The notes below the pieces were generated by a model that was not told the origin of the DNA, made no database searches, and worked only from the letters and a program-made list of their open reading frames with translations. Positions 22,619-50,303 of a DNA stretch of 64,000 nucleotides are shown piece after piece. A program made the position numbers and the translations under genes. Source of the DNA: Persicimonas caeni (lineage in GTDB: Bacteria; Myxococcota_A; Bradymonadia; Bradymonadales; Bradymonadaceae); assembly GCF_006517175.1 (NCBI RefSeq), contig NZ_CP041186.1:3125074-3189073 (forward strand). Direction: 5' to 3'. Within the stretch, counting starts at the first letter, position 1, and each line of letters starts with the position of its first letter.

Positions 22619-22751
22619 CCTGCCACACCGCACGCCGACCGGACCATCGAGGCCGGTCGGCGTGCGCCTCGAACTTTTTAGTGGTCGAAAGCGCCTAAAT
22701 GATTCAAGATTGAGTTGGCCAGCCCCGCTCTCCGCCAGCTCCACGTGAATC

Positions 22752-25547: not shown

Positions 25548-25578
25548 TGAAGACCGGGGGCTCCATTAAGACACACTG

Positions 25579-26307
25579 CTAAGACCCACTTCGGTCGTCG
25601 AACGAGTTGATCTGGAAGCCCACACCGCGAACCGTCTGGATGAGCTCGACGTCGAAGCGCCGAAACTTCTTGCGCACTCGGCGCACGTGGCTGTCGATGG
25701 TGCGCTCGCTGACGACCGTATCCTCGTAGACCTGCTCGATGAGCTCGGCGCGGGGAAACACTCGCCCGGGCGCGCTGGCCAGCACCTGCAAGATCTCGAA
25801 CTCGGTCTTGGTCAGCTCGACGTCCTCACCGGCCCAGACCACTTGATACTGGTTCAAATCGAGCACCAGCGGGCCTAGCTCGATAAGCCCCTCGTCACCG
25901 GCGCGCTCGGCGCTTACCGGCTCCTCGACGGTGCCCGAGCGACCGGTACGCCGGAGCACCGCGCGCACTCGAGCGAGCAACTCGCGCGGGTTGAACGGCT
26001 TGCTGATATAGTCGTCGGCCCCCAACTCCAGGCCCACAATGCGGTCGATCTCGTCGGCGAACTTCGACATGAACAAAATCGGGACTTCCGAGCGCTGCCG
26101 AATGTAGCGGCAGATGTCTTCGCCGCGCATATTCGGCAAAATATTGTCGAGAACGACGATGTCGAATGCATCGGAGTCGAACACCTCCAGGCAGTCTTCG
26201 CCCGTCGTTGCCTCGACGGTCTCGATTCCTGCGCGCTGGAGCGTACGAGTCACCAATGTCAACGTGGTCGGATCGTCGTCGACCACCAGACAGGTTAGGT
26301 CAGCCAT
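25579..26307 (-). CDS. OmpR/PhoB-family response regulator
   Basis: REC (VVDDDPTT...IVVLDNILPNMRGEDI...SKPFNPRELLARVRAVLRR) plus a winged-helix trans_reg_C domain (LTKTEFEILQVLASAPGRVFPRAELI). Confidence 0.85.
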   Translation of the reverse strand: MADLTCLVVDDDPTTLTLVTRTLQRAGIETVEATTGEDCLEVFDSDAFDIVVLDNILPNMRGEDICRYIRQRSEVPILFMSKFADEIDRIVGLELGADDYISKPFNPRELLARVRAVLRRTGRSGTVEEPVSAERAGDEGLIELGPLVLDLNQYQVVWAGEDVELTKTEFEILQVLASAPGRVFPRAELIEQVYEDTVVSERTIDSHVRRVRKKFRRFDVELIQTVRGVGFQINSFDDRSGS

Positions 26308-26481
26308 AGAAGAGAACTAGGGCAAAGGACTTCTATTGCGACGCAAATGGCCCCAAAAACTCCATCAGCGCCTGAAAGGTGCTAAACCACTAGATATCCT
26401 ATAATTTCTGGACAGTTGTGCAAGTGGCTTTGCAAAAAACGCGCAAAAAGGTGGGTTAACGCCGCGGGGAGAATACGCGCG

Positions 26482-27192
26482 TCATTCGCAGACAAGCTGG
26501 AAGCCGACACCACGCACGGTGCGGATCGGGTCGACGTCGAAATCACGAAATTTTTCTCGAATACGACGCACGTGGCTGTCGATGGTGCGCTCGCTGACGA
26601 CGACATTGTCATCGTACGCGCGGGCCACCAACTCCTCGCGGGTGTAGACGCGCGACGGCCAGCGTGCCAGCGTGCTCACCAGATCGAACTCGGTTTTGGT
26701 GAAGTCGATGGCGTGCTCGCCCCAGAAGGCTTTGTAGGCGTGCAGATCGAGGCGAAGCTTGCCGACTTCGAGTTCGTTGGTGTCGGCGCTCGGTTGGGGG
26801 GTGGGTTTGTGCTGGTCTCGCGCCGAGCGGCGCATCACGGCACGGACTCGCGCCAGCAGCTCGCGCGGATTGAACGGCTTGGCGATATAATCGTCGGCGC
26901 CCAATTCCAAGCCGACGATTCGGTCGACGTCGTCGGCGAATTTGGAGACGAACAAAATCGGCACGTCCGACTCGGCGCGGATGTGGCGGCAGACTTCCTC
27001 GCCGTCGACCTCGGGCATGACGTTGTCGAGCACCACCAAGTCGAGGTCGGTGGAGTCGAACAGTTCGATGGCCTCAGCGCCCGTGGTCGCCTCGATGATA
27101 TCGAAGCCCGCCCGGGTCAACGTCTTGACCACGATGGCGCGGCTGGTCGGATCGTCTTCTGCGACAAGTGCCTTTTCTCGAGCCATAACCAA
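26482..27192 (-). CDS. OmpR/PhoB-family response regulator (paralogue of 25579-26307)
   Basis: Same architecture and about 60 % identical over the REC core (VVLDNVMPEVDGEEVCRHIR...AKPFNPRELLARVRAVMRR). Confidence 0.85.
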   Translation of the reverse strand: MVMAREKALVAEDDPTSRAIVVKTLTRAGFDIIEATTGAEAIELFDSTDLDLVVLDNVMPEVDGEEVCRHIRAESDVPILFVSKFADDVDRIVGLELGADDYIAKPFNPRELLARVRAVMRRSARDQHKPTPQPSADTNELEVGKLRLDLHAYKAFWGEHAIDFTKTEFDLVSTLARWPSRVYTREELVARAYDDNVVVSERTIDSHVRRIREKFRDFDVDPIRTVRGVGFQLVCE

Positions 27193-27512
27193 GTACTTTT
27201 ACTGTTCACGACGTCATCCACATCGGTAGCCCACACAGGGAGCCTATCCGATGGCGCTCGCTCTACCGGGGCATTCCCAAAAGAATCGAGTCATCATCAC
27301 AAAGCGTATATGTCGAGCATTCGGCTTTAATGAAGCTAATGTAGTCGGAACCGCCCACATTGCAACAGAACTATCCGGCCATGCGCTTTGGGTGAATTAG
27401 ATGCAACAACGACCGCTCGAGTTGCATTTTCTCGAAAAACACAGAAACGGGTTGCGAAGCCCATGTACACGCACGTATCTTCACAGCAACAAATCCCCAC
27501 GTTCTTTGGGAA

Positions 27513-29927
<2,415 letters not shown>

Positions 29928-30092
29928 CCGCTGCCGCGCTCTCTCATCGCGGCCGAACTCATGGGCGTCGAAACCGTCGGTTGTTAAATACGTCCAAATT
30001 AACTACAAATGAGCCTCGTAATAACACCATCGACTGGAAGCGAGGGTCACGAGCCGCGTGCGTCCCGTTACAACGCTCGTAAGTGACGACGA

Positions 30093-30875
30093 ATGGAAGA
30101 GTTTCTCCAGATTGCACTGTCTTTCCCGACGGTCATCTTCTCGGGCATGCTCATCGGCGTGTTGCTGTACTGGACGATGGTCATCGTCGGCGCGGTCGAC
30201 ATCGACTTATTCGATCTCGACATCGATCTCGACACCGACTTCGACATCGACATGGACCTCGACGTCGACGCCGATGTCGACGGTGACTTCGACGTCGACG
30301 CCGACGGGCCCAGCGCAGGCATCATGCATTCGTTGATGGCGGCCATCGGCCTGGGGACCGTGCCGGTGACCATCATCGGCAGCATCGTCACCCTGGCGGC
30401 CTGGTTTTTGTCCTTCGCGGCAGTCTACTACCTGGGCCCGATGCTCGGCACCAGCGTCTTTGCCGGCCTGGGCATCGTGGTGGTCAGCTTCGTGTTGAGC
30501 CTGCCGATCACCTCGGTCTTCACCCACCCGCTCAAGGGCATCTTCAAGACTCACACGCACACCGGCGGCCAGACTCTGGTCGGCAAGCTGTGCAAAGTCA
30601 CCTCGGGCTCGGTCACCCAGACCTTCGGGCAGGCCGAGGTCGACGACGGCGGCGCAGGGCTGCTGGTGTCGATCCGCTGCGAGACCGAAGGCCTGCTGAA
30701 GCGTGGCTCGCGCGCATTGATCATCGAATACAACGCCGAACAAGATATCTACTTCGTCGAGCCCTATGACAACTTGCTGGCTGACGATGACGATGAAGTC
30801 GTCTTCGACACCGCCCAGGCGACCGACGACGCCGTACAACCCCAGCGAAACAAACAACTCGAGACGAATGAGTGA
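30093..30875 (+). CDS. YqiJ/DUF1449-like inner-membrane protein with C-terminal NfeD-type OB-fold and an unusual (D-x)n acidic loop
   Basis: Several TM segments, the loop DIDLFDLDIDLDTDFDIDMDLDVDADVDGDFDVDADG, and a C-terminal beta-rich segment (TLVGKLCKVTSGSVTQTFGQAEVDD...ALIIEYNAEQDIYFVEPYD) typical of NfeD-like partners of SPFH proteins. Confidence 0.6.
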   Translation: MEEFLQIALSFPTVIFSGMLIGVLLYWTMVIVGAVDIDLFDLDIDLDTDFDIDMDLDVDADVDGDFDVDADGPSAGIMHSLMAAIGLGTVPVTIIGSIVTLAAWFLSFAAVYYLGPMLGTSVFAGLGIVVVSFVLSLPITSVFTHPLKGIFKTHTHTGGQTLVGKLCKVTSGSVTQTFGQAEVDDGGAGLLVSIRCETEGLLKRGSRALIIEYNAEQDIYFVEPYDNLLADDDDEVVFDTAQATDDAVQPQRNKQLETNE

Positions 30876-30920
30876 GCCCGCGGGCTCGCGCAAACCGAAC
30901 GTTCTACTCGGAGAATAGAA

Positions 30921-33080
30921 ATGGACCCGATATCAGGAATGAGCGTGGCGACGATCGTGTTGGCGGCCGCCGCCGCGGTGATCATCCTCGGCGGCTTCGC
31001 CTTCGCCATCAAGTGCTATGTAAAGGTCGATCAGGGCCAGGCCTTGATCATCAACAAGACCACCAAAGAGCCGGAGGTCACCTTTACTGGCGGGTTGGTC
31101 ATCCCGGTGTTCAACCGCGCCGAGTACATGGATATCTCGCTGAAGACGGTCGAGATCGACCGGCGAGGCAAAGAGGGTCTGATATGTGCGGACAATATCC
31201 GCGCCGACATCAAGGTCACCTTCTTCGTGCGCATCAACAAGACCGCCGAAGACGTGCTCAAGGTCGCCCAGTCCGTGGGCTGCAAGCGCGCCTCCGACCA
31301 GGACAAAATCGAGGAGCTCTTCGTCTCGAAGTTCTCCGAGGCATTGAAGACCGTCGGTAAGCAGCTCGAGTTCGAGTCGCTGTACCAGGAGCGCGTGCAC
31401 TTCCGCGACAAGATCATCGAGATCATCGGCCAAGACCTCAACGGCTACGTCCTCGAAGACGCCGCCATCGACTACCTCGAGCAGACCCCGGTCGAGAACC
31501 TCGACCCGCAGAATATTCTCGACGCCCAGGGCATCCGTAAGATTACGGATCTGACCTCGGTCCAGCGGGTTCAGACCAACGAGTTCAGCAACAAAGCCAA
31601 GAAGGATATCGGCAAGGACGACCTCGAAACCAAGATGGCGCTGCTCGAGTACGAGCGCCAAGAGGCCGAGGCGACCGCCAAGCAGCAGCGCGAAATCGGC
31701 GTGGTCCAGGCGCGTGAGAAGGCCGAAGAGGCCGAAATCACCGCCAAGGAAGAGGCGCGCGCCCAGAAGGCGCACATCCAGGCGCAGCAAGAGATCGAAA
31801 TCCAGAAGATCAACAAGCAGCGCGAGGAAGAGGTCGCCCAGAAAAACCGCGAGCGCATCATCGCGGTCGAGACCGAAAACGTCGAAAAAGAGCGCCAGCT
31901 CCAGGTCATCAGCCGCGAGCGTGAGACCGAGCTGCAGCGCATCGAGAAGGACAAAGAGGTCGAGGTCGAGAAGAAGAATATCGCCGAGATCGTGCGCGAC
32001 CGCGTCTCGGTCGACAAGACGGTGGCCGAAGAGGAAGAGCGCATCCAAGACCTGCGCGTGATCGCCGACGCCGAGCGCCAAAAGAAAGCCGCGGTCATCG
32101 CCGCCGAAGGCGAGGCCGAGCAAGCGCTCGTCAAAGACATCAAAGAGGCCGAGGCCCAAGAGGCCGCCGCCAAGCACCGCGCCCAGCAGAAGGTCATCGA
32201 GGCCGAGGCCGAGCTCGACGCCAGCGAGCGCACCGCCAAGGCCAAAAAGCAGCTCGCCGAAGGTATCGAGGCCGAAGAGGCCGCCGCCGGCCTGGCCAAA
32301 GTCCGCGTCAAAGAGGCCGACGCTCAGGCCAACGAAAAGCAGGGTCTGGTCGACGCCCGCGTGCGCAAAGAGCAGCTGCTCGCAGAGGCCGCCGGCGAGG
32401 AAGAAAAGGGCATGGTGGAAATCCGCCTGACCGAAAAACGCGCCGAGGCCATCGAGAAGGAAGGCCTGGCCCAAGCCAAGGTCACCCGCGAGAAGGCCGT
32501 GGCCGAAGCCGCCGGCGACCAGGAAAAAGGCCTGGCGCAGGTGCGCATCAAAGAAGCCGAGGCCGACGCCATCCGCAAGGAAGGCATGGCCCGCGCCGAG
32601 GTCCGCGCCCAGCAGGGCGAGGCCGACGCCAAGGCCATCCAGGACAAGCTGGCCGCCGAGGCTGCCGGTCTGACCGAGAAGGCCGAGGCGATGAAGAACT
32701 TCGACAAGGAAGGCTACGAGTTCGAACGCTTCCAGATGGAGCTCGACCTGCAGCGCGAAATCAGCATGGAGCAGCTCGAGAAGTCGATCGAGATCGCCAA
32801 GGCGCAAGCCGCGGTGCTCGGAGACGCCTTCAAAGCCTCCAACATCAACATCGTGGGCGGCGACGACGCCTTCTTCGACAACTTCACCAAGTCGATCACC
32901 GTCGGCAAAATGGTCGAGGGGTTCATCGACACCAGCCCCACGGCCCGCAAGGTGCTCGACCAGGTCATGAACAAGGTCAGCAAGGACGAGGAGCCCGAGG
33001 CGCCCAAGGCGTCGGAGCCGACTGCATCGAAGGCTGACGACGTCGAAGAGGCGGTCACGGATCTGACGCCCGGAGAGTGA
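30921..33080 (+). CDS. Flotillin-like SPFH/Band-7 domain protein (YqiK/FloT-like) with very long E/A/K/Q-rich coiled-coil tail
   Basis: N-terminal TM helix, SPFH domain (KVDQGQALIINKTTKEP...VFNRAEYMDISLKTVEIDRRGKEGLICADNIRADIKVTFFVRIN) and flotillin-type EA repeats (AEAAGEEEKG.., AEAAGDQEKG..). Confidence 0.8.
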   Translation: MDPISGMSVATIVLAAAAAVIILGGFAFAIKCYVKVDQGQALIINKTTKEPEVTFTGGLVIPVFNRAEYMDISLKTVEIDRRGKEGLICADNIRADIKVTFFVRINKTAEDVLKVAQSVGCKRASDQDKIEELFVSKFSEALKTVGKQLEFESLYQERVHFRDKIIEIIGQDLNGYVLEDAAIDYLEQTPVENLDPQNILDAQGIRKITDLTSVQRVQTNEFSNKAKKDIGKDDLETKMALLEYERQEAEATAKQQREIGVVQAREKAEEAEITAKEEARAQKAHIQAQQEIEIQKINKQREEEVAQKNRERIIAVETENVEKERQLQVISRERETELQRIEKDKEVEVEKKNIAEIVRDRVSVDKTVAEEEERIQDLRVIADAERQKKAAVIAAEGEAEQALVKDIKEAEAQEAAAKHRAQQKVIEAEAELDASERTAKAKKQLAEGIEAEEAAAGLAKVRVKEADAQANEKQGLVDARVRKEQLLAEAAGEEEKGMVEIRLTEKRAEAIEKEGLAQAKVTREKAVAEAAGDQEKGLAQVRIKEAEADAIRKEGMARAEVRAQQGEADAKAIQDKLAAEAAGLTEKAEAMKNFDKEGYEFERFQMELDLQREISMEQLEKSIEIAKAQAAVLGDAFKASNINIVGGDDAFFDNFTKSITVGKMVEGFIDTSPTARKVLDQVMNKVSKDEEPEAPKASEPTASKADDVEEAVTDLTPGE

Positions 33081-33358
33081 CGTCGTTCGCGGAGCGGCTG
33101 CTTGCTGCCCGCGGAGCGCGCCCCGTTGTTTGGGGCGCCCGTGCAGCCCCGGGGCTCGCCCCGGGGGTTTGATCGACAATCACCACATGCGTTCGGCTAT
33201 GCGACGTTACGTTGTGCCGACACGTGGCGTTCAGAGTTGCCCCGAGTTCAGGAGACGCACGGTTAACCCCAAGGCAAGCCATGGGGCTGCACCGGCGAGG
33301 GCTCCGCTGGGGGCAAGCCCCCGCTCCGCATGATTCCGGCGTTCGCAGGCCATTTGCC

Positions 33359-36300
33359 ATGTCCGAAGAATCCCAAAAAGCCACCGAGACCCAAACCGAC
33401 CAACCCCAGGTCTCGTCGTCCAACTACGACATCATCCGCAAGCGCCTCGAAGACCAGGCGCGCCAGCTGCGTGAGCGCACCGACAAGCTCAACGCCGCCC
33501 GCGCCGACCTCTTCGGCGGCACCGAGATGACCGTCATCGGCCAAGAGCGCATCCGCACCGAGAACAACTGCATCCCGCAGGACATCGTCAACGTCGGCGG
33601 GCGCATGCTCTTTGGCTACAACGTGCATATCGGCCTGAAGACCAAGACCGAGGTCGACGACGTCTTCAGCCTGCACGCCTTCGACAAGTCCGACGACGGC
33701 TTCAAGCTCGAGTCGGTCGGCCAGGATTCGGACGCCAACTTTCTAAGCGACGCCAAGTTCGTCAAAGACTTCGACGAGCTGTACGCCTACTACAAAGACG
33801 CGCGCCTGCGGCAGCTCATCAAGCTCGAGGGCCGACTGCTGGGCATCTTCCAGATCGGCTCGACCCTCGAGGACCGCCGCGTGCTTCGCTGGGGCTTGGA
33901 CGCCCAGGAAAACGTCGAGTACATCGACAACGCCGGCGACCGCGACCTCAAGGCGCCCGACACCCACGACTTCCAGTGGCAGGGCGTCACCCGCGACGAT
34001 CACGTCAAGGGCAAGCACCCGCATATCAGCATCCTCGACGAGGTCTTCGTCGAGACCGTCGGCGGCGACCTGACCATCAAGATCGAGGACAACACCGACG
34101 ACGGCAAAGGCATCTACAGCGAGCCTGTGGAGGACCTGCACCAGTCGCTGGGCGACGGGGAGTTTTTCTGGGCCAAGATCGGCAACCTGATCTTGCTCAA
34201 GATCTTGCCGTACCGCGAGGAGGCGTGGCGCTACTTCGTCTACAACACGCTCACCCAAAAGGTGGAGCGCCTCGACGCCATCGGCCAGTCGTGCATCCGG
34301 CTGCCCGAAGACCAGGGCGTCATCTTCCCGGGCGGCTTCGTCTTGTCGAACGGCCAATCGAAGCGCTTCGACGCCACCGTCGAAGGCCTTCGCATCCACC
34401 AGGTCATCCGCTCGGCCAACGGTGAGGACGTCCTGTACGTCTTCTATCATCCCAAAGAGGGCGACTACCTACTGCTGGCCTACAACGTCATCCGCAAGGA
34501 CGTCCAAAACCCGATCAACTGCCACGGCTACTCGCTGTTCGACGACGGCACGATGATCGTGTTCCGGTTCATGGGCGACGAGCCCACGCGCATCCATCCG
34601 ATGCAGATCTGGCAGACGCCGTTTATCTCGGATGAGCACGCCGCCCAGCAGCCCAAAGACGACTCGCTGCTGAGCAATATCGGCAACGCCGAGCTGGTGC
34701 GCGGCATCTCCGACGCCTACAGCCTCTGCTCGATGGTCGGCGACCTCGAGCCGTCGATGCCGGTGTACGAGGCGCTCATCGCCACCGCCCAGAAGCTGCT
34801 CGACGCCTACTTCTGGCTCGACAAGGACGAGGCGCAAAACCTCGCCGAGGTCGCCACAGAGATCATCTCGACCGCCGAGCTCGTCATCGACGAGTTCCAG
34901 AAGGTCACCGCCCTCAAAAAGCGCGCCAAAGAGGCCCTCGAAGAGGCCGAGGCCAAGCAGCGCTCGCTCTTCACCGACGTGCGCTACCACGATTGGAACC
35001 GCATCGAGCGCTTCGTCGAGGGCCTCGACAAGCTCCGAAAGCAGCGCGGTCATCTGATCACGCTCAAGGAGATGCGCTACATCAAAGTCAGCCGCCTCGA
35101 CGAGCTCGAGGCCGAGGTCAGCGAGCGCTACGACGACCTGAGCCGGGCGACCGTCGACTTTTTGCTCCAAGACGAGGCGCTTCGCACGTATCAAGAGGGC
35201 CTCGACGAGCTCGACGCCACTGTCGAAAACCTCGAGAACACCAAGCAAGCCGCCGAGCTCGAAAAGAAGCTCGACGAGATCAACAAAGGCCTGAACCTGT
35301 TGACCGAGGTCATCAGCGGCCTGCAGATCGACGACCCCACTAAACGCACGAAAATACTGGAGAATATCGGCGAGGTCCTCAGTCGCCAGAACCGCGCCCG
35401 CGCCCGGCTCGAGCGCAACACCAAGGAGCTGCAGGAAAAAGAGGGCAAGGCCGAATTCGCCGTCCAATTCCAGCTCTTCAGCCAGAGCGTGACCAGCGCG
35501 CTGGGCATGTGCGACACGCCTGAAGCGTGCGACGAGCAGCTCACGCGTTTGATGGTCCAGCTCGAGGAGCTCGAGAGCCGCTTTAGCTCCTTCGACGGCT
35601 ATCTGGGCCGCCTCGCCGAGAAGCGCGAAGAGGTCTACGAGGTCTTCGAATCGCGCAAGCAAGCCTTGCTCGAGGAGCGCCAGCGCAAGGCGAACAACAT
35701 CGCCAGGAGCGCCGACCGCATCCTCAAGGGCGTGGTGCGCCGCGCGTCGAACATGAAGTCGGTCGACGACCTGAACGCCTACTTCGCCTCCGACGCCATG
35801 GTCATGAAGGTGCGCGACCTGGTGACCAAGCTTCGCGAGCTCGAAGAGGACGTCAAAGCCGACGACATCACCACCCAGCTCAAGGCCGCCAAAGACAAAG
35901 CGGTGCGCCAGCTCCGCGACAAGCTCGACCTGTTCGAAGGTGGCGACAACGTCATCAAGTTCGGCCAGCACCGCTTCAGCGTGAACACCCAGTCGCCCGA
36001 GATGACGATGGTGCCGCGCGAGGTCGACGGCGAGCCGCGCATGGCGCTGCACATCACGGGCACCGACTTCTTCGAGATCATCGACGACGAGGAGTTCAAC
36101 AAAACCCGGCGCTTCTGGGACCAGCACCTCATCTCGGAGACCGACACCGTCTACCGCGGCGAGTACTTGGCCGCCTCGATTCTCTTCGACGCCGAAGCGG
36201 GCGAAAACGAGCTGACGGTCGCCGAGTTGCAGCGCCGCAAAAAGTCCGAGAAGGGCCTGCAGCCGCTCATCCGCGAGTACATGAACGAGCGCTACGACGA

Positions 36301-38749
36301 GGGCTACGAGCGCGGCGTCCACGACGAGGACACCGCTAAAATTCTCGGAGCGTTCTTGGGCATGTACGCCACCGCCGGCCTGCTGCGCTTTACGCCGCGC
36401 GCCCGGGCGCTGGCGACGATGTTCTGGACGTTCGCCGAGCAACCCGACCGGCGCAAGAACTGGGGCCGAAGAGGCGTGAGCCTCGGGCGTCTGCGCGAGA
36501 TCTTCGAGCACGGCAAGCCGCTCGAGGCATTGGGCGAAGAGCTCGCCCAAGAGATAGAAGCGTTCGCCGCCACCTTCGGTGCGGGGGCATCCCTGCCCTC
36601 GCCGCGAGAGCTAGAAGCACTCGCACCGAAAAAGGGCCTCTGCCGCGAAGCCGGACGCTACCTCGCCGAAGAGCTCGTCGACACCAACCCCCGCTTCGTC
36701 GAATCGAGCGAAGCGGTCGCCCTGCGCGACAAGTTCTTCAACTATCTCGACCAAAAGCACACTCGCCTCGACTTCGACGAGGACTTGAAGCAACTCCAAG
36801 GCAACCTCGCCGCGCGCTGGGAGCTCGTCATCGCCTGGCTCACGGGCTTCGCCGACAGCCAGCTCGACGACGACATGTCGCACCTGATCCCCGAGGTCGC
36901 CGCGCTGATCTTGACCGACGGCACCCTCGAGCGGCAGACCGCGCAGGCGCGCACCACCGCCGAAGTCACCGACCTTCTGGGCGACCACCCGCGCATCGAC
37001 GGCGGCGCGCTCGAGCTTCGCCTCGACGAGTTTTTGACCCGGCTTCGCCGCTATATCGACGAGCACGTCCCCGCCTACAAGGAGTACAAAAAGCTCAGCC
37101 GCGACTTGCTCGAGCGCGAGCGCCGGCGCCTTCGCGTCGACAGCCTCGAGCCGCAGGTCTTCAGCGGATTCGTGCGCAACCGCCTCATCGACGAGGTCTA
37201 CCTGCCGCTCATCGGCGACAACCTCGCCAAGCAGATGGGCACCGTCGGCGAGGACAGCCGCTCGGACCGAAGCGGCCTGCTCCTGCTCATCTCGCCGCCC
37301 GGCTACGGCAAGACGACCTTGATGGAGTATATCGCCGACCGCCTCGGCCTGATGTTCATGAAGATCAACGCACCCAGCCTGGGTCACGACGTCACCTCGC
37401 TCGACCCCGACGAGGCGCCCAACGCCACCGCGCGAAACGAGGTCGAAAAGATCAACCTCGCCCTCGAGATGGGCAACAACGTGATGCTCTATCTCGACGA
37501 TATCCAGCACACCCACCCCGAATTCTTGCAGAAATTCATCTCGCTATGCGACGCCACCCGCCGCATCGAGGGTGTCTGGAACGGACGCACCAAGACCTAC
37601 GACCTTCGCGGCAAGCGCTTCTCGGTGGTCATGGCCGGTAACCCGTACACCGAGTCGGGCGAGCGCTTCACGATCCCCGACATGCTCGCCAACCGCGCCG
37701 ACACCTACAACCTGGGCGACATCCTCAGCGGCAAGCAGGACGCCTTCGAGATGAGCTATATCGAAAACGCGCTCACCTCGAACAAGGTCACCGCCCCGCT
37801 CGTCACCCGCGAGCGCCAAGACATCATGCGCTTCATGAAGATGGTCGACGGCCAGCAAATCCCGCTGACCGAGTTCGACCACGCCTACTCGTCAGTGGAG
37901 GCCGGCGAGATCGTCAACGTGCTCGAAAAGCTGGTGCAAATCCGCGACGTGGTGCTCAAGGTCAACCAGCAGTACATCATCTCGGCGGGCAAAAAGGACG
38001 AGTACCGCACCGAGCCGCCCTTCCAGCTGCAGGGCAGCTACCGCAACATGGGCCGCATGACCGAGAAGGTCGCCTCGGCGATGAACGACCGCGAGGTCCA
38101 AGAGATCATCGACAACCACTACAACCAGGAATCCCAGACGCTCACCACCGGCTCCGAGCAAAACCTGCTCAAGCTCGCCGAGCTTCGTGGCACCTTGACC
38201 GAGGAGCAAAAAGAGCGTTGGGAAGAGATCAAACGCGAGTACAAACGCCGCAAGATGATGGGCGGCGACGACGACCCCGTCAGCCGCGTCGCCGGCCCCC
38301 TGGCCACGCTCGTCCAACGCCTCGAAGACGTCCACACCGCCCTGCAGACCGACACGGTCTCCGGCGAGCTGGGCGAAATCCGCGGGGTGCTCGAAAAGGC
38401 CGTCGATTCGGCAGCCAAAGCCACAGCCAAAAAGCCGTCGACCGTCGACCGCCCCAAGCCCAAACAACAGCAGCCGGCAGCAACCGCCCCGGCCACCGCC
38501 GAAGCCTTGTCCGAAGCCCTGCTCTCCCTGCAACAAGCCAAGCTCGAGGTCCAGGTCGTCGGCGACATGCCCTCGAAACTCGGCGAGGTCCTCGAGAGCC
38601 AACTCGGCCTCATCGAAAGCGCCATCTTGCCCTTGGCCAAATTCGTCTACCGCGAAGCCGAAGACGACAAACGCCGCGACGCCCAACTCGACGAGGTCAT
38701 GCGCAAGCTCGACGCGCTGCGCGGCACGCCCGTGCCGGAAGGCGAGTAA
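33359..38749 (+). CDS. Giant (~1796 aa) multidomain protein: N-terminal beta-rich domain, extended coiled coils, C-terminal dynein/MoxR-like (AAA_5-type) ATPase. Function unknown
   Basis: Uninterrupted ORF (track 33212-38749; start placed at MSEESQKATE). Walker A LLLISPPGYGKTTL, Walker B VMLYLDDIQH, sensor-1-like VVMAGNPYTE. About 500 aa of heptad-rich sequence between the N-terminal and ATPase domains. Co-directional with and 130 bp downstream of the flotillin gene. Confidence 0.6.
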   Translation: MSEESQKATETQTDQPQVSSSNYDIIRKRLEDQARQLRERTDKLNAARADLFGGTEMTVIGQERIRTENNCIPQDIVNVGGRMLFGYNVHIGLKTKTEVDDVFSLHAFDKSDDGFKLESVGQDSDANFLSDAKFVKDFDELYAYYKDARLRQLIKLEGRLLGIFQIGSTLEDRRVLRWGLDAQENVEYIDNAGDRDLKAPDTHDFQWQGVTRDDHVKGKHPHISILDEVFVETVGGDLTIKIEDNTDDGKGIYSEPVEDLHQSLGDGEFFWAKIGNLILLKILPYREEAWRYFVYNTLTQKVERLDAIGQSCIRLPEDQGVIFPGGFVLSNGQSKRFDATVEGLRIHQVIRSANGEDVLYVFYHPKEGDYLLLAYNVIRKDVQNPINCHGYSLFDDGTMIVFRFMGDEPTRIHPMQIWQTPFISDEHAAQQPKDDSLLSNIGNAELVRGISDAYSLCSMVGDLEPSMPVYEALIATAQKLLDAYFWLDKDEAQNLAEVATEIISTAELVIDEFQKVTALKKRAKEALEEAEAKQRSLFTDVRYHDWNRIERFVEGLDKLRKQRGHLITLKEMRYIKVSRLDELEAEVSERYDDLSRATVDFLLQDEALRTYQEGLDELDATVENLENTKQAAELEKKLDEINKGLNLLTEVISGLQIDDPTKRTKILENIGEVLSRQNRARARLERNTKELQEKEGKAEFAVQFQLFSQSVTSALGMCDTPEACDEQLTRLMVQLEELESRFSSFDGYLGRLAEKREEVYEVFESRKQALLEERQRKANNIARSADRILKGVVRRASNMKSVDDLNAYFASDAMVMKVRDLVTKLRELEEDVKADDITTQLKAAKDKAVRQLRDKLDLFEGGDNVIKFGQHRFSVNTQSPEMTMVPREVDGEPRMALHITGTDFFEIIDDEEFNKTRRFWDQHLISETDTVYRGEYLAASILFDAEAGENELTVAELQRRKKSEKGLQPLIREYMNERYDEGYERGVHDEDTAKILGAFLGMYATAGLLRFTPRARALATMFWTFAEQPDRRKNWGRRGVSLGRLREIFEHGKPLEALGEELAQEIEAFAATFGAGASLPSPRELEALAPKKGLCREAGRYLAEELVDTNPRFVESSEAVALRDKFFNYLDQKHTRLDFDEDLKQLQGNLAARWELVIAWLTGFADSQLDDDMSHLIPEVAALILTDGTLERQTAQARTTAEVTDLLGDHPRIDGGALELRLDEFLTRLRRYIDEHVPAYKEYKKLSRDLLERERRRLRVDSLEPQVFSGFVRNRLIDEVYLPLIGDNLAKQMGTVGEDSRSDRSGLLLLISPPGYGKTTLMEYIADRLGLMFMKINAPSLGHDVTSLDPDEAPNATARNEVEKINLALEMGNNVMLYLDDIQHTHPEFLQKFISLCDATRRIEGVWNGRTKTYDLRGKRFSVVMAGNPYTESGERFTIPDMLANRADTYNLGDILSGKQDAFEMSYIENALTSNKVTAPLVTRERQDIMRFMKMVDGQQIPLTEFDHAYSSVEAGEIVNVLEKLVQIRDVVLKVNQQYIISAGKKDEYRTEPPFQLQGSYRNMGRMTEKVASAMNDREVQEIIDNHYNQESQTLTTGSEQNLLKLAELRGTLTEEQKERWEEIKREYKRRKMMGGDDDPVSRVAGPLATLVQRLEDVHTALQTDTVSGELGEIRGVLEKAVDSAAKATAKKPSTVDRPKPKQQQPAATAPATAEALSEALLSLQQAKLEVQVVGDMPSKLGEVLESQLGLIESAILPLAKFVYREAEDDKRRDAQLDEVMRKLDALRGTPVPEGE

Positions 38750-38770: not shown

Positions 38771-38980
38771 CATCTTCCTCCCCCGCGTAGCGAGGGGAGG
38801 ACCGAGGAGGGGCGTCCCTTTCCATGTAGCGAAGCGAAATGGAGAGGGATTCAGGGAGAGGCCCCTACTACAATCGCCCGCAAGCAATCCGCCCCCCGCT
38901 ACGGGCAACGCACGTCGGCTACGCCTCCGTGCTCGCCCGCAGCTAAAAGTTCGTATCACCCACAAGGGGTTCGAGGACGA
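38771..38980. repeat. Composite repeat: half of a family-A element (catcttcctcccc...ggaggaccgaggagg) followed by a family-B element (ccgctacgggcaacg...ctcgcccgcagctaaaagttcgtatcacccacaaggggttcgagg)
   Basis: Sequence identity to 48056-48265 and to the B copies at 39285 and 39455. Confidence 0.8.
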
Positions 38981-39560: not shown

Positions 39561-40916
39561 TCACGGCACCGTCGCCTGCCCGCTGCTATCACTGCCCCAA
39601 CAATGGGTCGTCCCATTGTCATCCACCCCGCAGGTATGCCACCGCCCCGCGTCGATGGACGTGAACACGACCGTCGTAGGCGGCGTCGATTGCCCGTAGG
39701 AGTCTTGCCCCCAACACTCGACCTGCCCAAAACCGTCGAGCACGCAGGTGTGGTTCCACCCCGACGAGATCTGCTCGTAGCCAGCCCCCGCTGGCGCGTC
39801 GCTCACCTCGCCGGCGTCGTCTTTGCCCCAGCAATTGACTTCGCCGCCCGTCGTCAGCGCGCACGTAAAGCTCTGGCCGACGCTGACCTGCGCGAAGCTG
39901 CCCTGGCGCACCTGGGCCTGGCCGTGGTCGCTGCGTCCCCAGCACCATAGCTCGTTCGACTCTTTGATCCCGCAGGTATGATGCGGCCCGGCGGCGATCT
40001 GCAAAAACTCGCCCGTCGGCGCCGAGGCCTTGCCGTCGTCGGTATTGCCCCAGCATTCGACCCGCCCGTCGACGCCGATCGCGCAGGCGTGCCGGCTGGC
40101 CGCGCTCACCTGCACGTACTCGCCGCCCAGCGGCGTCGCCATGCCGTCGGTGTCCGCGCCCCAGCACTGCAACTCGTGAGACATATCGATACCGCAGGTG
40201 TGCAGGCCCCCGGCGCTCACGTCGATGAAGCTCGCCTGCGGCGGCGTCGCCTGACCGGCGTTATCCGCGCCCCAGCACCGAACGGAGCCGCCGGCGGCGA
40301 TCTCGCAGGTGTGGTTGCCGCCGGCGCTCACCTGCGTGTCGATGCAGCTCGCGGTCGTGCTCGGCATCCAGTCCGACGAGACGGACGACGGAAGGCACAA
40401 CAGACACGCATCGTCGCTCTTGGCCTCGCCGCTCGAAAAACACGTGCCGTCGATCAGACACGCGTCCGCATTCACGCTGCCCTGCTGGCACTGCCCCAGA
40501 TCGTCGCACGTCCCCTCCCCGGTGCAGCTCAGCCCGTCATCGCAGCTCGCGCCGGGGGTCACGCGCTCCACGCAATTGCCGCGCAGACACACGTTCTCCA
40601 TGCACGGCGTGTCGATGGGCGCACACTCGACGTCCGCGCACAGGTCGGCCGCGTCCGCCTCTCCCGTATCCTCGTCGCCTGCATCCTCCCGGCCTCCATC
40701 CGGAGCGACGGTGCTGTCCTCCTCGACGTCACTCGACGCATCCTGGGGCTGCTCGGCGTCGCCGGCATCAGACACCCCCGCGTCGGCCGTGCCGTTCGGC
40801 TCGGGGTCGTCCGAACAGCCGCCCGTCGCCAGCACGGTCGCCAGCGCGACGAACAAAACAACCACCACACGACGGGATGCGGGCACGCGCCCCCGGGACA
40901 TCGAGTCTGACTTCAT
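39561..40916 (-). CDS. Secreted lipoprotein with RCC1/BLIP-II beta-propeller repeats and an N-terminal Cys-rich (EGF-like) module
   Basis: Signal peptide plus lipobox (VLFVALATVLATGGCSD). A D/E-rich linker, then a Cys-rich segment. Seven or more repeats of the CWGxxxxGQ / HTCG(I/L) type (SAGGLHTCGID, VSAASRHACAIG, IAAGPHHTCGIK...). Confidence 0.75.
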   Translation of the reverse strand: MKSDSMSRGRVPASRRVVVVLFVALATVLATGGCSDDPEPNGTADAGVSDAGDAEQPQDASSDVEEDSTVAPDGGREDAGDEDTGEADAADLCADVECAPIDTPCMENVCLRGNCVERVTPGASCDDGLSCTGEGTCDDLGQCQQGSVNADACLIDGTCFSSGEAKSDDACLLCLPSSVSSDWMPSTTASCIDTQVSAGGNHTCEIAAGGSVRCWGADNAGQATPPQASFIDVSAGGLHTCGIDMSHELQCWGADTDGMATPLGGEYVQVSAASRHACAIGVDGRVECWGNTDDGKASAPTGEFLQIAAGPHHTCGIKESNELWCWGRSDHGQAQVRQGSFAQVSVGQSFTCALTTGGEVNCWGKDDAGEVSDAPAGAGYEQISSGWNHTCVLDGFGQVECWGQDSYGQSTPPTTVVFTSIDAGRWHTCGVDDNGTTHCWGSDSSGQATVP

Positions 40917-41080
40917 ACAACTTCTCTCCAAAAGCATCGTCTTGATCAGGCGCCGTATCGCACTCTACAGACTTACCTTGCGGGCGCGTTTGCAAGCAAC
41001 CTGCGAGCACTGCTCACCGCAGTTGCCCAACCGGCCTCCCTTGGGGCACACTCGCCCAGCAAAACGTTTCTCCAGATTCG

Positions 41081-41581: not shown

Positions 41582-44500
41582 ATGAGGTACTGTAGAGACG
41601 CAACTGTTTCACCTGCGGCCGGCGCGATGCGCCTGCTCGCCCTGATCGGCCTGCTCGCCTTGACGATCGTCGGCACTGCGTGCTCCGACGACGAGGAGCC
41701 GCCCGCCGAGACGACGACGCCGCAGATCTCCGCCTTTGCGGCCGAGCCTGCGACCATCACCGCCGGTGAGCCGGCCACGCTCAACTGGACGATCGCCAAC
41801 GCGACCTCGGCCGAGATCTCGGTCGTCGACGGCGACTTCAGCCACACGATCGCCGACGAGAACCTCGCCTCCGGCTCGCTCGAAGTCACCCCCGAGGCGA
41901 CGACCACCTACGTGCTGACCGCCGTCAACGGCGACAAAGAGGCGACCGCGCAGGTCGAAGTCACCGTCGAGGAGCCGGTCGCCGCGCCCAGCGTCGACAG
42001 CTTCGAGGCCTCGCCCGAGACGATCACCGAAGGCGAGACGGCCACCCTCAGTTGGACGACGACCGGGGCTACTTCGCTCGCGCTCGTCGACGGCGACGGC
42101 AACGACATCGACCTGGGCGACGCCGACGTCGACTCGGGCTCGGTCGACGTCTCGCCGACCGCAGACACCACCTACACCCTGACGGCCACCAACGATGGCG
42201 GCAGCGACCAACAGAGCGTGACCGTCTCCGTCGACGCGCTGCCCGACGCCCCGACCATCGACGCCTTCTCGGTCTCGCCGAACCCGGCGCAGGTCGGCGG
42301 CACCGTTACCGTCTCCTGGGATGTCACCGGCGCCGACACCCTCACCCTCGAATCGGACGCCGACGGCGCCATCGACATCAGCAGCGAGCCGACCGACACA
42401 GGCTCGATCGACGTGACCGTGCCCGACCAGACCGACGTGGTCTACACGCTCACCGCCGAGAACGCCGGCGGCACCGCCACCCAGGACTTCACCCTGACCA
42501 CCGGCGACGCGGTCACCATCGCCTCGTTCACCGCCGACCCCAGCGACACGATCGTCCAGGGCGACAGCGTCACGCTGAGCTGGTCGGTCGCCAACGCCAC
42601 CGACGTCACCCTCGAGTCCGACATCACCGGCGCCATCGACCTGAGCAACCTGGCCACGCCCGGCGAGATCTCGCTGCAGCCCCAGCAGACCACGACCTAC
42701 ACGCTGACCGCCGAGGGCCTCGGTGGCCCGGTCACCGAGACCTTGACCGTCGACGTCGCCCCGCCGGTCGCCATCACCGACTTTAGCGCCAGCCCGCAGA
42801 CCGACGTCGCCCCGGGCTCCGACGTCACCCTCAGCTGGACCGTCACCGGCGCCACCCAGATCGACATCGAGGATAGCGCCGCCAACTCGGTCTACTCGGG
42901 CACCGACCTGACCGGCACGGTCACCGTCACCCCCTCGGCCGACGAGACCTACACGATCACGGCGAGCAACGCGGGCAGCTCGGACACCGCCGACGTCACC
43001 GTCACCGTGCTTTCCGCCCCCACGATCAACACGTTCGGCGCCACGCCCGACACCGACGTCCCCGCAGGCTCCGACGTCACCCTGAGCTGGGACGTCTCCA
43101 ACGCAGCCCAGGTCGACATCGTCGACGACGCCGCCACCTCGATCTACTCGGGCAGCGACGCCACCGGCACCGTCACGGTCAACCCGACCGCCGACGTGAC
43201 CTACACCCTGACGGCGACCAACGCCAACGGCTCGGACACCGCCGACGTCACCGTGACCACCGTGGCCGCGATCACCATCGACAGCTTCAGCGCCGACACC
43301 ACCACGACCGTCTCCGGTGAAGCCGTCCAACTGAGCTGGACGACCACCAACGGCAACGCGCTGACGATCACCGGCGACGCGGGCATCACCAACTACACCG
43401 CCGCCAGCGGCGAAGTCGCCTCGGGCACCCTCGTGGTGCGCCCGCAGACGACCACCATCTATACGCTCACCCTCGACGGGCCGGGCAACCAGCAGCAGAC
43501 CTCCACGCTCACCGTCACCGTCGACGCCGCCAACCTGGTCATCAGCGAGGTGCTCTATGACGTGGCCGGAAGCGACGACACCTACGAATGGATCGAGGTC
43601 TACAACGCCGGCGACACCTTCGTGGACCTGTCGAATTACTCGATGGGCGGCGGCGGGAGCGACTACACCTACTCGCAGCTCGACCTGAGCGGCACCCTCG
43701 CCCCGCAGGGCTGCGCGGTCTTCGGCGGGCCGGCCTCCACCGCCGACAACGCCAACCCGACCTTCTTCGACGGCACCGGCACCGACATCGTCAACGACCT
43801 GCAAAACGGCGGCAGCACCGCCGACGGCGTGGCGCTCTTCTTCGCCCCCTCGGCCAACGTCGACGCCTCCAGCGTGCCCATCGACTCGGTGCTGTACGGC
43901 GACGCCAACAGCTCCGGGCTGCTCGGCGAAGACGGCTCCGCCGACACCGAGCTCTCCCCGGACGTCGCCAGCGGCTCGAGCCTCGCGCGCATCTCGCCGA
44001 CGAGCGACGTCTTCGTCGAGCGCACCTCGCCGACGCCCGGGCGCTGCTTCAACGCCACCACCGTCAGCTCGGCCAGCGCCCCCGCCGACACCACCGGCAC
44101 CACCACCATCGAGGGCTTCGGCCTCGACCCGGCCCTCGACACCTACGAACTCGAGGACGACAGCGGCACCGCCTTCGTGCTCACCAACTGCACCGAGACG
44201 AGCCAAGACGTCGTCGAATGCACCGTCCCGGTGCTCACGAGCGCCTCGTCGGCCGCCCTCGACCTGGTGATCACCCGCAACCTCGAGTACACCCCCGACG
44301 CCGACGGCGACCCCACGGCGACCCCGGCCGCCCAGCCGCAGGAGTTCCGCCTCGCCGACGCCTACGCGCCGAGCAACACCATCAACTGGTGCAACGTCCA
44401 GTTTCCCCCCACCGCCACACTCACCACGGGCGGCACCACGATCGTCTACGGCCAGCTCTACATCGCCGGGTACACCGACACGCAGTCGACCGTCTTCGAC

Positions 44501-44782
44501 TCTCCGTCCATCGTCTCGCAGCTGGGCGTCGGCCCCGACAACAGCGACCCGTCCACGGCCACCGGCTGGTCCTGGACCGACGCGTCGCCGAACACGGGCT
44601 TCGACTTCTCCCAGAATAACGACGAGTACCAGGCCACGCTCACCGCTCCGGCGACCGCCGGAAACTACGACTACGCCTATCGCTTCTCGGGCGACGGCGG
44701 CCAGACCTGGACCTACTGCGACAGCAACGGTCCCGGCGACGGCTACGTACCGAGCGACGCCGGCCAGTTGACGGTGAACTAA
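41582..44782 (+). CDS. Large secreted protein: lipoprotein-type signal, about 9 tandem ~85-aa Ig-like/Big-type repeats, lamin-tail domain (LTD), C-terminal beta domain
   Basis: Strong RBS. Signal MRLLALIGLLALTIVGTACSD. Repeats of the form SF.A.P.TI..G..ATLSW.V..A..V.L......ID..........V.P...TTYTLTA.N. LTD signature LVISEVLYDVAGSDDTYEWIEVYNAGDTFVDLSNY. Confidence 0.75.
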   Translation: MRYCRDATVSPAAGAMRLLALIGLLALTIVGTACSDDEEPPAETTTPQISAFAAEPATITAGEPATLNWTIANATSAEISVVDGDFSHTIADENLASGSLEVTPEATTTYVLTAVNGDKEATAQVEVTVEEPVAAPSVDSFEASPETITEGETATLSWTTTGATSLALVDGDGNDIDLGDADVDSGSVDVSPTADTTYTLTATNDGGSDQQSVTVSVDALPDAPTIDAFSVSPNPAQVGGTVTVSWDVTGADTLTLESDADGAIDISSEPTDTGSIDVTVPDQTDVVYTLTAENAGGTATQDFTLTTGDAVTIASFTADPSDTIVQGDSVTLSWSVANATDVTLESDITGAIDLSNLATPGEISLQPQQTTTYTLTAEGLGGPVTETLTVDVAPPVAITDFSASPQTDVAPGSDVTLSWTVTGATQIDIEDSAANSVYSGTDLTGTVTVTPSADETYTITASNAGSSDTADVTVTVLSAPTINTFGATPDTDVPAGSDVTLSWDVSNAAQVDIVDDAATSIYSGSDATGTVTVNPTADVTYTLTATNANGSDTADVTVTTVAAITIDSFSADTTTTVSGEAVQLSWTTTNGNALTITGDAGITNYTAASGEVASGTLVVRPQTTTIYTLTLDGPGNQQQTSTLTVTVDAANLVISEVLYDVAGSDDTYEWIEVYNAGDTFVDLSNYSMGGGGSDYTYSQLDLSGTLAPQGCAVFGGPASTADNANPTFFDGTGTDIVNDLQNGGSTADGVALFFAPSANVDASSVPIDSVLYGDANSSGLLGEDGSADTELSPDVASGSSLARISPTSDVFVERTSPTPGRCFNATTVSSASAPADTTGTTTIEGFGLDPALDTYELEDDSGTAFVLTNCTETSQDVVECTVPVLTSASSAALDLVITRNLEYTPDADGDPTATPAAQPQEFRLADAYAPSNTINWCNVQFPPTATLTTGGTTIVYGQLYIAGYTDTQSTVFDSPSIVSQLGVGPDNSDPSTATGWSWTDASPNTGFDFSQNNDEYQATLTAPATAGNYDYAYRFSGDGGQTWTYCDSNGPGDGYVPSDAGQLTVN

Positions 44783-50170: not shown

Positions 50171-50303
50171 AGGCGCGCAAATTCTGCCTACGCGGCGCGC
50201 TGACGAAAATATTGCCTACCTCGAACGGCGCTGGAGACCTCTCTAGCGCCGTTTTTCGTGGCACACGCCTTGCATCGCCTTTCTACGGTTTAAATCCACC
50301 CCG

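Follow-up and report, generated by a model that had tools for sequence, protein, structure and literature searches.

The window analysed here is a stretch of 64,000 nucleotides (64 kb) of the Persicimonas caeni genome, on contig NZ_CP041186.1. Three co-directional genes lie on its forward strand behind a 70-bp AT-rich island: g1 (positions 30093–30875, an ORF of 260 aa), g2 (30921–33080, 719 aa) and g3 (33359–38749, 1796 aa), the last of these inside a longer ORF (33212–38749). The start of g3 was placed at the ATG at 33359 because this N-terminus is conserved in the homologue alignment. The gaps are therefore 45 nt between g1 and g2 and 278 nt between g2 and g3, in agreement with the 45 bp and about 280 bp given in an earlier note on this DNA. 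The AT-rich island directly upstream of g1 (29971–30040, forward strand), which the same note had called unusual, is real but small. Its minimum GC content over 60 nt is 0.367, versus 0.651 for the window, and it is one of only three spots as AT-rich in the 64 kb. It is probably the promoter region; neither a sigma-70 nor a sigma-54 consensus was found in it. Upstream of the operon, the window also encodes two hybrid histidine kinases and an OmpR-type regulator. Three consecutive GC-rich stem-loops (33089–33166, forward strand) follow the g2 stop codon and appear as three hairpins in the centroid fold. They have no T-run, do not stand out statistically (z = -1.5) and possibly act as a partial terminator or attenuator. 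In other genomes g2 and g3 either overlap or are separated by a short gap. The earlier note was wrong in placing a hairpin only after the second gene, since another one (CCTCCCC...GGGGAGG, 38776–38799, forward strand) lies 3' of the g3 stop codon, where it likely marks the end of the operon.

The g1 product has three hydrophobic segments (aa 7–32, 77–99 and 122–140), an acidic, D-rich loop (aa 36–72) and a soluble C-terminal domain. A Pfam search gave no match at all for the window protein, neither to NfeD nor to YqiJ, and 30 homologues gave weak matches only, to YqiJ_N, YqiJ_OB and NfeD. Comparison with the YuaF structure (2k14) gave a match at the corresponding position with E=0.81, and the Hymenobacter homologue carries the NCBI name 'DUF1449 family'. 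This protein represents the YqiJ/YuaF type (short NfeD-like) of membrane partner for SPFH proteins, although sequence comparison detects its NfeD/YqiJ homology only weakly. It is 34% identical (E=3e-31) to BacC (PA3730) of Pseudomonas aeruginosa, of which it is the orthologue. The g2 product consists of a single N-terminal transmembrane segment (aa 12–30), an SPFH domain, a coiled coil of about 370 aa rich in E, A and K (E+A+K+R+Q fraction of 0.66 over aa 230–600) and a conserved C-terminal domain. Pfam was silent on the full-length protein, and the Band_7 domain (PF01145, E=6.5e-13, aa 35–179) was seen when the N-terminal 234 aa were searched alone. The FloT equivalog model gave 17 bits against a cut-off of 700 bits, and BacD is 50% identical across 652 aa. 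By sequence, g2 encodes a flotillin-like SPFH scaffold protein orthologous to BacD/PaFlo3 (PA3729). The earlier note had read the domains of all three proteins correctly, including the YqiJ/NfeD and SPFH identities, although Pfam searches with the two full-length window proteins returned neither. The same arrangement, in which the gene directly 5' of an SPFH gene with long coiled coils encodes a membrane protein ending in a soluble domain, is known from YqiK-YqiJ and QmcA-YbbJ in E. coli, FloT(YuaG)-YuaF in B. subtilis and FloA-NfeD in S. aureus. As published, these pairs are without an ATPase gene, whereas the trio of the window has g3; it also differs from them in that g2 falls far under the FloT cut-off and g1 is missed by the NfeD and YqiJ models.

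The g3 product is a soluble, cytoplasmic protein of about 200 kDa in which no transmembrane segment was found, and it is 100% identical to the 'DNA repair ATPase' of Persicimonas caeni at NCBI. Pfam detects DUF3686 (E=1e-204), DUF7902 and AAA_5. The N-terminal DUF3686 domain (33467–34813, forward strand, as for all g3 domains) is a divergent beta-propeller packed on a helical bundle. It is followed by a coiled coil (34826–35938, aa ~490–860) that includes DUF7902 (35174–35428, aa 606–690; PF25472, E=6e-26). Heptad periodicity is raised over aa ~450–800, where 43% of the residues are charged or Gln and Pro+Gly make up 4%. The middle region (35939–37165, aa ~861–1269) contains a small beta unit and a large helical domain; the latter, for which no recognisable relative was found, is novel. 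The AAA+ module (37166–38278) is of the MoxR/dynein type with a C-terminal helical extension. Its motifs GYGKTT (Walker A, 37301–37318), LYLDDIQH and MAGNPY are all present, as the earlier note had stated, and the key residues K1318, D1380/D1381 and N1428 are invariant in a 12-sequence alignment. The Walker B motif is thus Asp-Asp (D1380-D1381) rather than Asp-Glu in all 12 sequences. Judged by AAA+ proteins in general, g3 may therefore switch slowly instead of running as a processive motor. The nearest folds to the module are the MoxR remodellers CbbQ and NorQ, and Foldseek also gives RuvB matches. With 47% identity to BacE (PA3728) across 1790 aa, g3 is a DUF3686-family AAA+ ATPase and the orthologue of BacE.

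The linkage of these genes was surveyed at 80 independent loci with a g3 homologue, from about six phyla (taxa: Myxococcota, Actinomycetota, Gamma-, Beta- and Zetaproteobacteria, Acidobacteriota). A g2-like SPFH gene lies immediately 5' of the g3 homologue on the same strand in 79 of them, and so wherever the upstream DNA is long enough. This recurrence goes beyond chance and bears out the earlier idea of a repeated gene order in which yqiJ/yqiK-like pairs precede giant AAA_5 coiled-coil proteins. In 74/80, a g1-like gene whose product has three transmembrane segments lies immediately 5' of g2, also on the same strand; loci lacking an upstream match mostly have too little upstream DNA. The SPFH part of g2 is 53–77% identical in the 79 loci, and its C-terminal part was detected in 78 of the 80. 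A 4-nt overlap of g2 and g3 is frequent in Actinomycetota, and a Bacteroidota plasmid has the same gene order. The trio is an operon conserved across bacterial phyla. Genes for YjfI and PspA lie directly upstream of it in 19 of the 80 loci, and also in pQBR103 and on a Hymenobacter plasmid; neither gene is present in the 64-kb window.

The operon is not undescribed, as had been supposed: g3 falls in the Pfam families DUF3686 and DUF7902, and Ravi et al. 2024 (PMC11237479) have already reported an operon of a band-7 protein, a YqiJ-YuaF protein and a 'novel AAA+ ATPase with coiled-coil and beta-propeller', associated with PspA. They also described 'abbreviated operons' without PspA that hold only the band-7/flotillin and YqiJ/YuaF proteins, sometimes with the ATPase. 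The three proteins of the window and their architectures match this description exactly, with no difference in kind, and the window operon is a Bradymonadales example of the abbreviated class. Orthologues of its genes have been studied experimentally as bacC-bacD-bacE in P. aeruginosa, within the 'biofilm-associated cluster' bacABCDEF (PA3732–PA3727; PMC2587700, PMC10948618). The products of the cluster are a YjfI-like chaperone, a PspA homologue, BacC, BacD, BacE and a PLD-family protein, and our P. aeruginosa locus (L083) reads DUF2170, PspA_IM30, a 213-aa protein, a 688-aa protein, the DUF3686 ATPase, PLDc_2, YaeQ, RecJ and LasB. All eight published RT-PCR primers map to gene junctions of this locus. 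The window thus holds a conserved operon in its abbreviated form, with three genes, and the full form in Pseudomonas is bacABCDEF: BacC-BacD-BacE have the same order and strand as g1-g2-g3, whereas BacA, BacB and BacF have no counterpart in the window. The bac operon is co-transcribed, encodes a PspA homologue and has a putative sigma-54 site (PMC10948618), in contrast to the region upstream of g1. In a bacA mutant, BacB-F are up 6–13-fold (PMC10948618). The PspA homologue PA3731 accumulates upon osmotic shock, and cells that lack it form biofilms and swarm less well and are less virulent (PMC2587700). A point against the membrane-maintenance reading favoured below is that P. aeruginosa could largely do without its SPFH genes, including PaFlo3 (BacD), in the laboratory (PMC13086221). 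Operons of this kind are known but poorly understood.

The names 'ATPase involved in DNA repair' (Pfam) and 'DNA repair ATPase' (NCBI) would make g3 a repair enzyme whose adjacency to membrane genes is incidental. Besides the Foldseek matches, RuvB P-loop matches were found below threshold (E about 1e-3), and the third gene downstream in P. aeruginosa is recJ. However, the RuvB matches are limited to the generic P-loop (aa 1300–1342) and score 17 bits against family cut-offs of 282–299, searches for DNA-binding or nuclease domains in g3 were negative, and the papers searched contain no mention of DUF3686 or PF12458, nor any repair evidence. The SPFH and three-TM genes accompany g3 almost without exception, in some genomes with translational coupling. 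A role in DNA repair is very improbable. The earlier note had also suggested anti-phage defence. In such a defence or other conflict system, g3 would be the sensor of infection or of damage to the membrane, and killing or protecting the cell would fall to an effector, for which proteobacterial versions offer the PLD/HKD protein. Defence systems do include large coiled-coil ATPases, and the coiled coil of g3 has a weak LmuB match (E=1e-6). A PLDc_2 gene follows g3 in 8–9 gammaproteobacterial loci and in P. aeruginosa, the operon occurs on megaplasmids such as pQBR103, and its occurrence among Pseudomonas species is patchy. Two loci carry insertions in the g2–g3 gap, namely a HepT/MNT toxin-antitoxin pair and PD-(D/E)XK transposase genes. 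Yet PADLOC recognised no system and matched single proteins only weakly, homologues were absent from 50,697 phage records, and clustering of neighbours yielded no conserved defence genes. The window version has no effector, and the extra genes that are conserved elsewhere are those of PspA and YjfI, which relate to envelope stress. Identity between phyla exceeds 45% across about 1700 aa of g3, which is unusual for defence proteins and fits a conserved cellular partner. We consider a defence function improbable.

The relation to MoxR ATPases deserves more weight. MoxR proteins are about 250–500 aa long and act with a VWA-domain partner, and CbbQ and NorQ remodel client enzymes. The flotillin/NfeD pair could be no more than a platform; g3, as a chaperone of the MoxR kind, would then serve the maturation, insertion or extraction of one particular client, a membrane protein or complex, and would not act on the flotillin scaffold itself. 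Propellers typically serve to bind clients or partners, and Ravi et al. (PMC11237479) suggested chaperone-like help in building complexes linked to the membrane. In contrast to CbbQ, NorQ and RavA, g3 is 1796 aa long, includes a propeller, a coiled coil and helical domains, and has a DD Walker B. Pfam scanning of nine neighbouring ORFs found neither a VWA adaptor nor a nuclease partner, as the earlier note had claimed, and no client gene is kept beside the operon across phyla. The near-obligate linkage of g3 to one SPFH subfamily suggests that its partner is the scaffold, which leaves a dedicated client rather unlikely.

The reading that we favour, with reasonable though not strong confidence, is a flotillin/NfeD-type scaffold under the membrane that is remodelled or serviced by the g3 ATPase in envelope maintenance. 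Sub-membrane assembly and dynamics were also proposed in PMC11237479, as a contextual hypothesis that gives no mechanism for the ATPase. As in other SPFH-NfeD pairs, g1 and g2 would form a cage or microdomain at the cytoplasmic face of the inner membrane. The g3 protein would probably form a ring via its AAA+ domain, with the propeller and coiled coil probably docking on the g1/g2 scaffold, and its use of ATP could drive assembly, disassembly or remodelling of the scaffold or of proteins held there. A functional analogy, and only that, exists with HflK/C-FtsH and ESCRT-III-Vps4, where a membrane scaffold or polymer (SPFH cage, PspA/ESCRT-III polymer) is combined with an AAA+ machine; in some lineages g3 shares its operon with both an SPFH protein and PspA. 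The link to envelope stress is extrapolated from other lineages, since the window has neither PspA/YjfI genes nor a sigma-54 promoter upstream of g1. Where the PspA/YjfI dyad is present, the system would be coupled to the ESCRT-III-like PspA protein, and in Persicimonas a partner PspA may be encoded elsewhere. The overall role of the system would then lie in envelope stress or membrane maintenance.

The three genes lie on the forward strand and encode a membrane protein of 260 aa (g1, 30093-30875), an SPFH protein of 719 aa (g2, 30921-33080) and a giant AAA+ ATPase (g3, 33359-38749). The ORF call that contains g3 spans 33212-38749, and an alignment of 12 diverse homologues places a conserved methionine and the matching N-terminus at the ATG at position 33359. 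The g3 protein therefore has 1796 aa, and the gaps are 45 nt between g1 and g2 and 278 nt between g2 and g3, in agreement with the 45 bp and about 280 bp of the earlier note. A simple hydropathy scan gave three membrane segments for g1, one for g2 and none for g3. The unusually AT-rich island reported upstream of g1 is real but short (29971-30040), with a minimum 60-nt GC fraction of 0.367 versus 0.651 for the whole window. A GC fraction at or below this value is found at only three places in the 64 kb. The sole other 60-nt stretches matching the AT-richness before g1 (21402-21465 and 26380-26439) are both gene starts, one before a sigma-54 activator gene and one at the start of the ORF 26416-27330. 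RNA folding predicts three GC-rich stem-loops after the g2 stop codon (33089-33166), with no T tract and with a stability that is not above that of shuffled sequence (z = -1.5). The hairpin was said to occur only after the second gene; another (38776-38799) is also present 3' of g3. The DNA being GC-rich, a scan for sigma-70 promoters and terminators was uninformative.

The g3 protein is 100% identical to the NCBI entry 'DNA repair ATPase [Persicimonas caeni]' and belongs to the giant ATPase family of Pfam DUF3686/DUF7902. DUF3686 (PF12458) matches aa 37-485 over the full model length (E=1.1e-204, 680.6 bits versus a cut-off of 25). DUF7902 (PF25472) matches aa 606-690 (90.8 bits versus a cut-off of 26) within the coiled-coil region, which shows heptad periodicity and many charged residues at aa ~450-800, and the Pfam domains AAA_5 and AAA are found C-terminally at aa 1304-1432. 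Both DUF domains are present in all of the best 120 homologues, and an AAA-type domain in nearly all. When 1.84 billion cluster representatives were searched with the N-terminal domain of g3, 767 clusters passed E<=1e-3; among the 150 clusters listed, the proteins have ~1600-2000 aa, or are shorter and apparently partial. The AAA+ fold is of the MoxR/dynein (AAA_5) type, with conserved Walker A, Walker B, sensor 1 and arginine finger. The Walker A lysine, the Walker B Asp-Asp pair, the sensor-1 Asn and the Arg of 'ANRAD' are invariant in a 12-sequence alignment; the site is intact, yet unusual in that its Walker B is DD. The MoxR family proper consists of small stand-alone AAA+ proteins with a VWA partner gene, whereas g3 is a very large protein with three extra domains. 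In agreement with the earlier note, no VWA partner was found: the domain is absent from the scanned neighbouring genes of the window and from the conserved neighbours in 80 loci sampled around g3 homologues. Two Pfam matches in the middle of g3, to MIT (E=0.074) and, below the cut-off, to Tox-SHH (E=0.0035), were dismissed as noise. Apart from generic P-loop similarity, nothing supports the database name 'DNA repair ATPase', and a DNA-repair role was rejected. Our literature search found nothing on DUF3686/PF12458, and nothing joining 'DNA repair ATPase' or the plasmid pQBR103 with flotillin.

The g2 protein is a member of the SPFH/Band 7 superfamily. Band_7 (PF01145) was detected when the N-terminal 234 aa were scanned alone (49.5 bits versus a cut-off of 23.6, E=6.5e-13); the full-length protein gave no Pfam match and nothing usable in NCBIfam, probably because of its long coiled coil. 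From the N-terminus, the protein comprises a transmembrane segment, the SPFH domain, a coiled coil of ~370 aa that is rich in E, A and K, and a C-terminal domain that is conserved. It does not belong to the FloT/YqiK flotillin subfamily as judged by the FloT equivalog NF058507 (17.4 bits versus a cut-off of 700), and sequence searches of the PDB with the whole protein, its N-terminus and a 27-sequence profile gave no match. We thus call g2 flotillin-like by architecture only.

Classification of g1 is less direct. The protein has no Pfam or NCBIfam match, including to NfeD (PF01957), YqiJ_OB (PF07290) and YqiJ_N (PF21001), and 30 homologues gave only weak ones: YqiJ_N in 2 (best E-value 6e-4), YqiJ_OB in one (0.013) and NfeD in one (0.021). 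Against the PDB, the family profile hit the corresponding region of Bacillus subtilis YuaF (2k14) at a sub-threshold E=0.81. A Hymenobacter homologue is annotated as DUF1449, the earlier name of YqiJ_OB. The orthologue PA14_16160 (BacC) of Pseudomonas aeruginosa has been termed a short NfeD (PMC13086221). Assignment of g1 to the YqiJ/YuaF class (short NfeD) rests mainly on such annotations of its orthologues, on its multi-pass topology and on its position directly upstream of, and co-directional with, the SPFH gene. The stretch between the first two membrane segments, aa 36-72 (30198-30308), is strikingly acidic and quasi-periodic: DIDLFDLDIDLDTDFDIDMDLDVDADVDGDFDVDAD. A short G..D.D..D motif is retained at this place in homologues, but the length of the stretch differs greatly among them; as a speculation, it might bind divalent cations.

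Scanning one genome per species revealed more than 590 loci with g3 relatives, of which the best 80 were analyzed. These come from Myxococcota, Actinomycetota (Nonomuraea, Nocardiopsis, Micromonospora, Actinoplanes and others), Gamma-, Beta- and Zetaproteobacteria, and Acidobacteriota. In 79 of the 80 loci, the SPFH part of g2 immediately precedes g3 on the same strand, the sole exception having just 65 nt of upstream DNA. The g1 gene is present in 74 loci, and most of those lacking it have too little upstream DNA. The 79/80 loci speak against a chance adjacency of the ATPase to the SPFH pair, an explanation that was rejected. The earlier observation on the three genes is sound, and its key prediction, a recurrent linkage in gene neighbourhoods, is borne out; that the homologues would never be linked to SPFH/NfeD genes is clearly not the case, the linkage being near-obligate. 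Median gaps in these loci are 25 nt (g1-g2) and 69 nt (g2-g3), and a 4-nt overlap of g2 with g3 in many Actinomycetota points to translational coupling. Foreign genes are located exactly between g2 and g3 in three loci (L074, 8027-9927; L076, 7653-9986; L028, 3996-9291). These insertions comprise two tandem PD-(D/E)XK transposase genes, an NYN-domain gene with an MNT/HepT toxin-antitoxin pair, and OmpA-family and DUF11-domain genes, respectively, and the spacer seems to tolerate or attract insertions. Some Myxococcota loci have a second, shorter SPFH ORF between g1 and g2 (L053, 7090-8418; L011, 7088-7546), so the scaffold gene has been locally duplicated.

The earlier note took this system to be a candidate for an undescribed one. 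However, Ravi, Anantharaman, Aravind, Gennaro and colleagues have already described operons in which a CesT/Tir-PspA dyad is joined to three proteins, with a phospholipase D superfamily gene added in some Proteobacteria (PMC11237479, mSystems 2024; preprint 2020). Their description fits the window exactly, which holds a YqiJ-like three-TM protein, a band-7/flotillin protein and a beta-propeller/coiled-coil AAA+ ATPase in one operon. Orthologues have also been studied in P. aeruginosa as the 'biofilm-associated cluster' bacA-F (PA14_16140-16200), whose co-transcription was demonstrated by RT-PCR across each junction, whose BacB-F are up 6-13-fold in a bacA mutant, and which has a proposed sigma-54 site 5' of bacA (PMC10948618). 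Loss of the PspA homologue PA3731, a protein that accumulates upon osmotic shock, impairs biofilm formation, swarming, rhamnolipid production and virulence (PMC2587700). The orthology of g1, g2 and g3 with BacC, BacD and BacE was verified directly by sequence comparison (34, 50 and 47% identity). The P. aeruginosa g3 homologue (P0131, 1746 aa) has the DUF3686, DUF7902 and AAA domains, and the gene order at its locus is DUF2170, PspA, a 213-aa protein, a 688-aa protein, the ATPase, PLDc_2, YaeQ, RecJ and LasB. All eight published RT-PCR primers map to gene junctions of this locus (L083), seven of them exactly. The eighth, PA14_16180/90_R (7202-7221 in L083), is listed in the supplementary table of PMC10948618 as a 21-mer with one extra base and one substitution relative to P. 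aeruginosa, probably a typographical slip. The two bac papers (PMC10948618, PMC2587700) do not comment on the domains of BacE, and a review table gives PA3728 as a plain 'ATPase'. A 2026 study named BacD 'PaFlo3' and found SPFH genes largely dispensable under laboratory conditions (PMC13086221). PA3729 also appears in an Arc-pathway paper, merely as a background protein of an immunoprecipitation. The window thus adds no new kind of system, but a further case of one that is computationally described and partly studied.

Clustering of flanking ORFs in the 80 loci revealed no further neighbour conserved across all phyla. DUF2170 (YjfI-like) and PspA/IM30 genes lie directly upstream on the same strand in 19 loci, all proteobacterial, and a PLD-family gene and a rhomboid gene lie 3' of g3 in 8-9 loci. 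HMMs for the dyad matched in the same number of loci (19/80) and in pQBR103, with PspA only in Hymenobacter; no match was obtained in the 64-kb window, nor in any Myxococcota or Actinomycetota locus. The window lacks the upstream dyad of CesT/Tir-like YjfI (DUF2170) and PspA/IM30 that marks the full-length form, and is therefore an 'abbreviated' form. On pQBR103, a P. fluorescens megaplasmid, the g1-g3 homologues follow a complete yjfIJKLMC-like block with a rhomboid gene. This locus (L081; NC_009444.1, 84437-97641, P. fluorescens SBW25) is a ten-gene (+) strand block ending with the g1, g2 and g3 homologues; next to it is an MvaT/MvaU-family gene in the opposite orientation. A Hymenobacter (Bacteroidota) plasmid has the three homologues behind a 'chaperone Tir' gene and a PspA gene. 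In the window, a signalling cluster (21524-29927) just upstream of the operon encodes a PspF-like sigma-54 activator that lacks a receiver domain (21524-22618), two Hpt-containing hybrid histidine kinases (22752-25547 and 27513-29927) and an OmpR-type regulator (25579-26307, -). A search for sigma-54 promoters gave none ahead of g1. Perfect matches to the consensus TGGCAC-N5-TTGC are located at 1402-1416 (-), 16699-16713 (+) and 50259-50273 (+), none near g1, and overall match counts in the window are not above chance. Downstream of the operon are genes for an RCC1-repeat (beta-propeller) protein (39561-40937, -) and a protein of 1066 aa containing Lamin-tail and Ig-like domains (41582-44782, +), neither of which is conserved beside the operon elsewhere in the 80 loci.

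An anti-phage defence module, as had also been suggested, finds little support in these data. The three genes match no known system in PADLOC-DB v2: g1 and g2 gave no matches, and those of g3 are weak coiled-coil/P-loop ones only (LmuB 26 bits, IetA 14 bits). Relatives of g3 occur in 13 records of a plasmid collection, but in none of 50,697 phage records. The version in the window lacks an effector, the sequences are very highly conserved across phyla, and the extra conserved genes, where present, are the envelope-stress genes for PspA and YjfI.

Established are the gene content and domain architectures, the near-obligate linkage of the three genes, the co-transcription of their P. aeruginosa orthologues and the intact but unusual AAA+ site. 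In the most likely scenario, the g1 and g2 proteins would build a scaffold of the SPFH/NfeD type at the cytoplasmic side of the membrane. The g3 protein, presumably soluble and ring-forming, would dock on this scaffold via its propeller and coiled coil, and would use ATP to assemble it, take it apart or remodel it, or to act in these ways on its contents. Overall, the system would serve in envelope maintenance, with a coupling to PspA in some lineages. As the main alternative, the scaffold would be a platform only and g3 a MoxR-like chaperone of some client. A more specific form of the remodelling role, which we put forward tentatively and consider rather unlikely, is that g3/BacE is a dedicated ATP-driven remodeller of flotillin cages and, where PspA is present, also of its ESCRT-III-like polymer. 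If so, g3/BacE would play in bacteria a part like that of Vps4 or of the FtsH-HflKC pairing, as a MoxR-type AAA+ ring with beta-propeller 'hands' on coiled-coil arms, and it would be the missing source of energy for membrane repair and for the dynamics of SPFH microdomains.

Flotillins and PspA of bacteria are credited with organising and repairing membranes, and we know of no energy-consuming partner established for either. The operon joins an AAA+ ATPase, very large and strongly conserved, to a single flotillin subfamily and in some lineages also to PspA, and the window shows that a minimal three-gene core without PspA exists in Bradymonadales. Being linked so consistently across phyla (79/80 loci), the operon is tractable for asking how SPFH scaffolds are assembled, turned over and used. 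The role of the ATPase is a real and testable question, for which P. aeruginosa BacE (PA3728) offers the obvious starting point for experiments.
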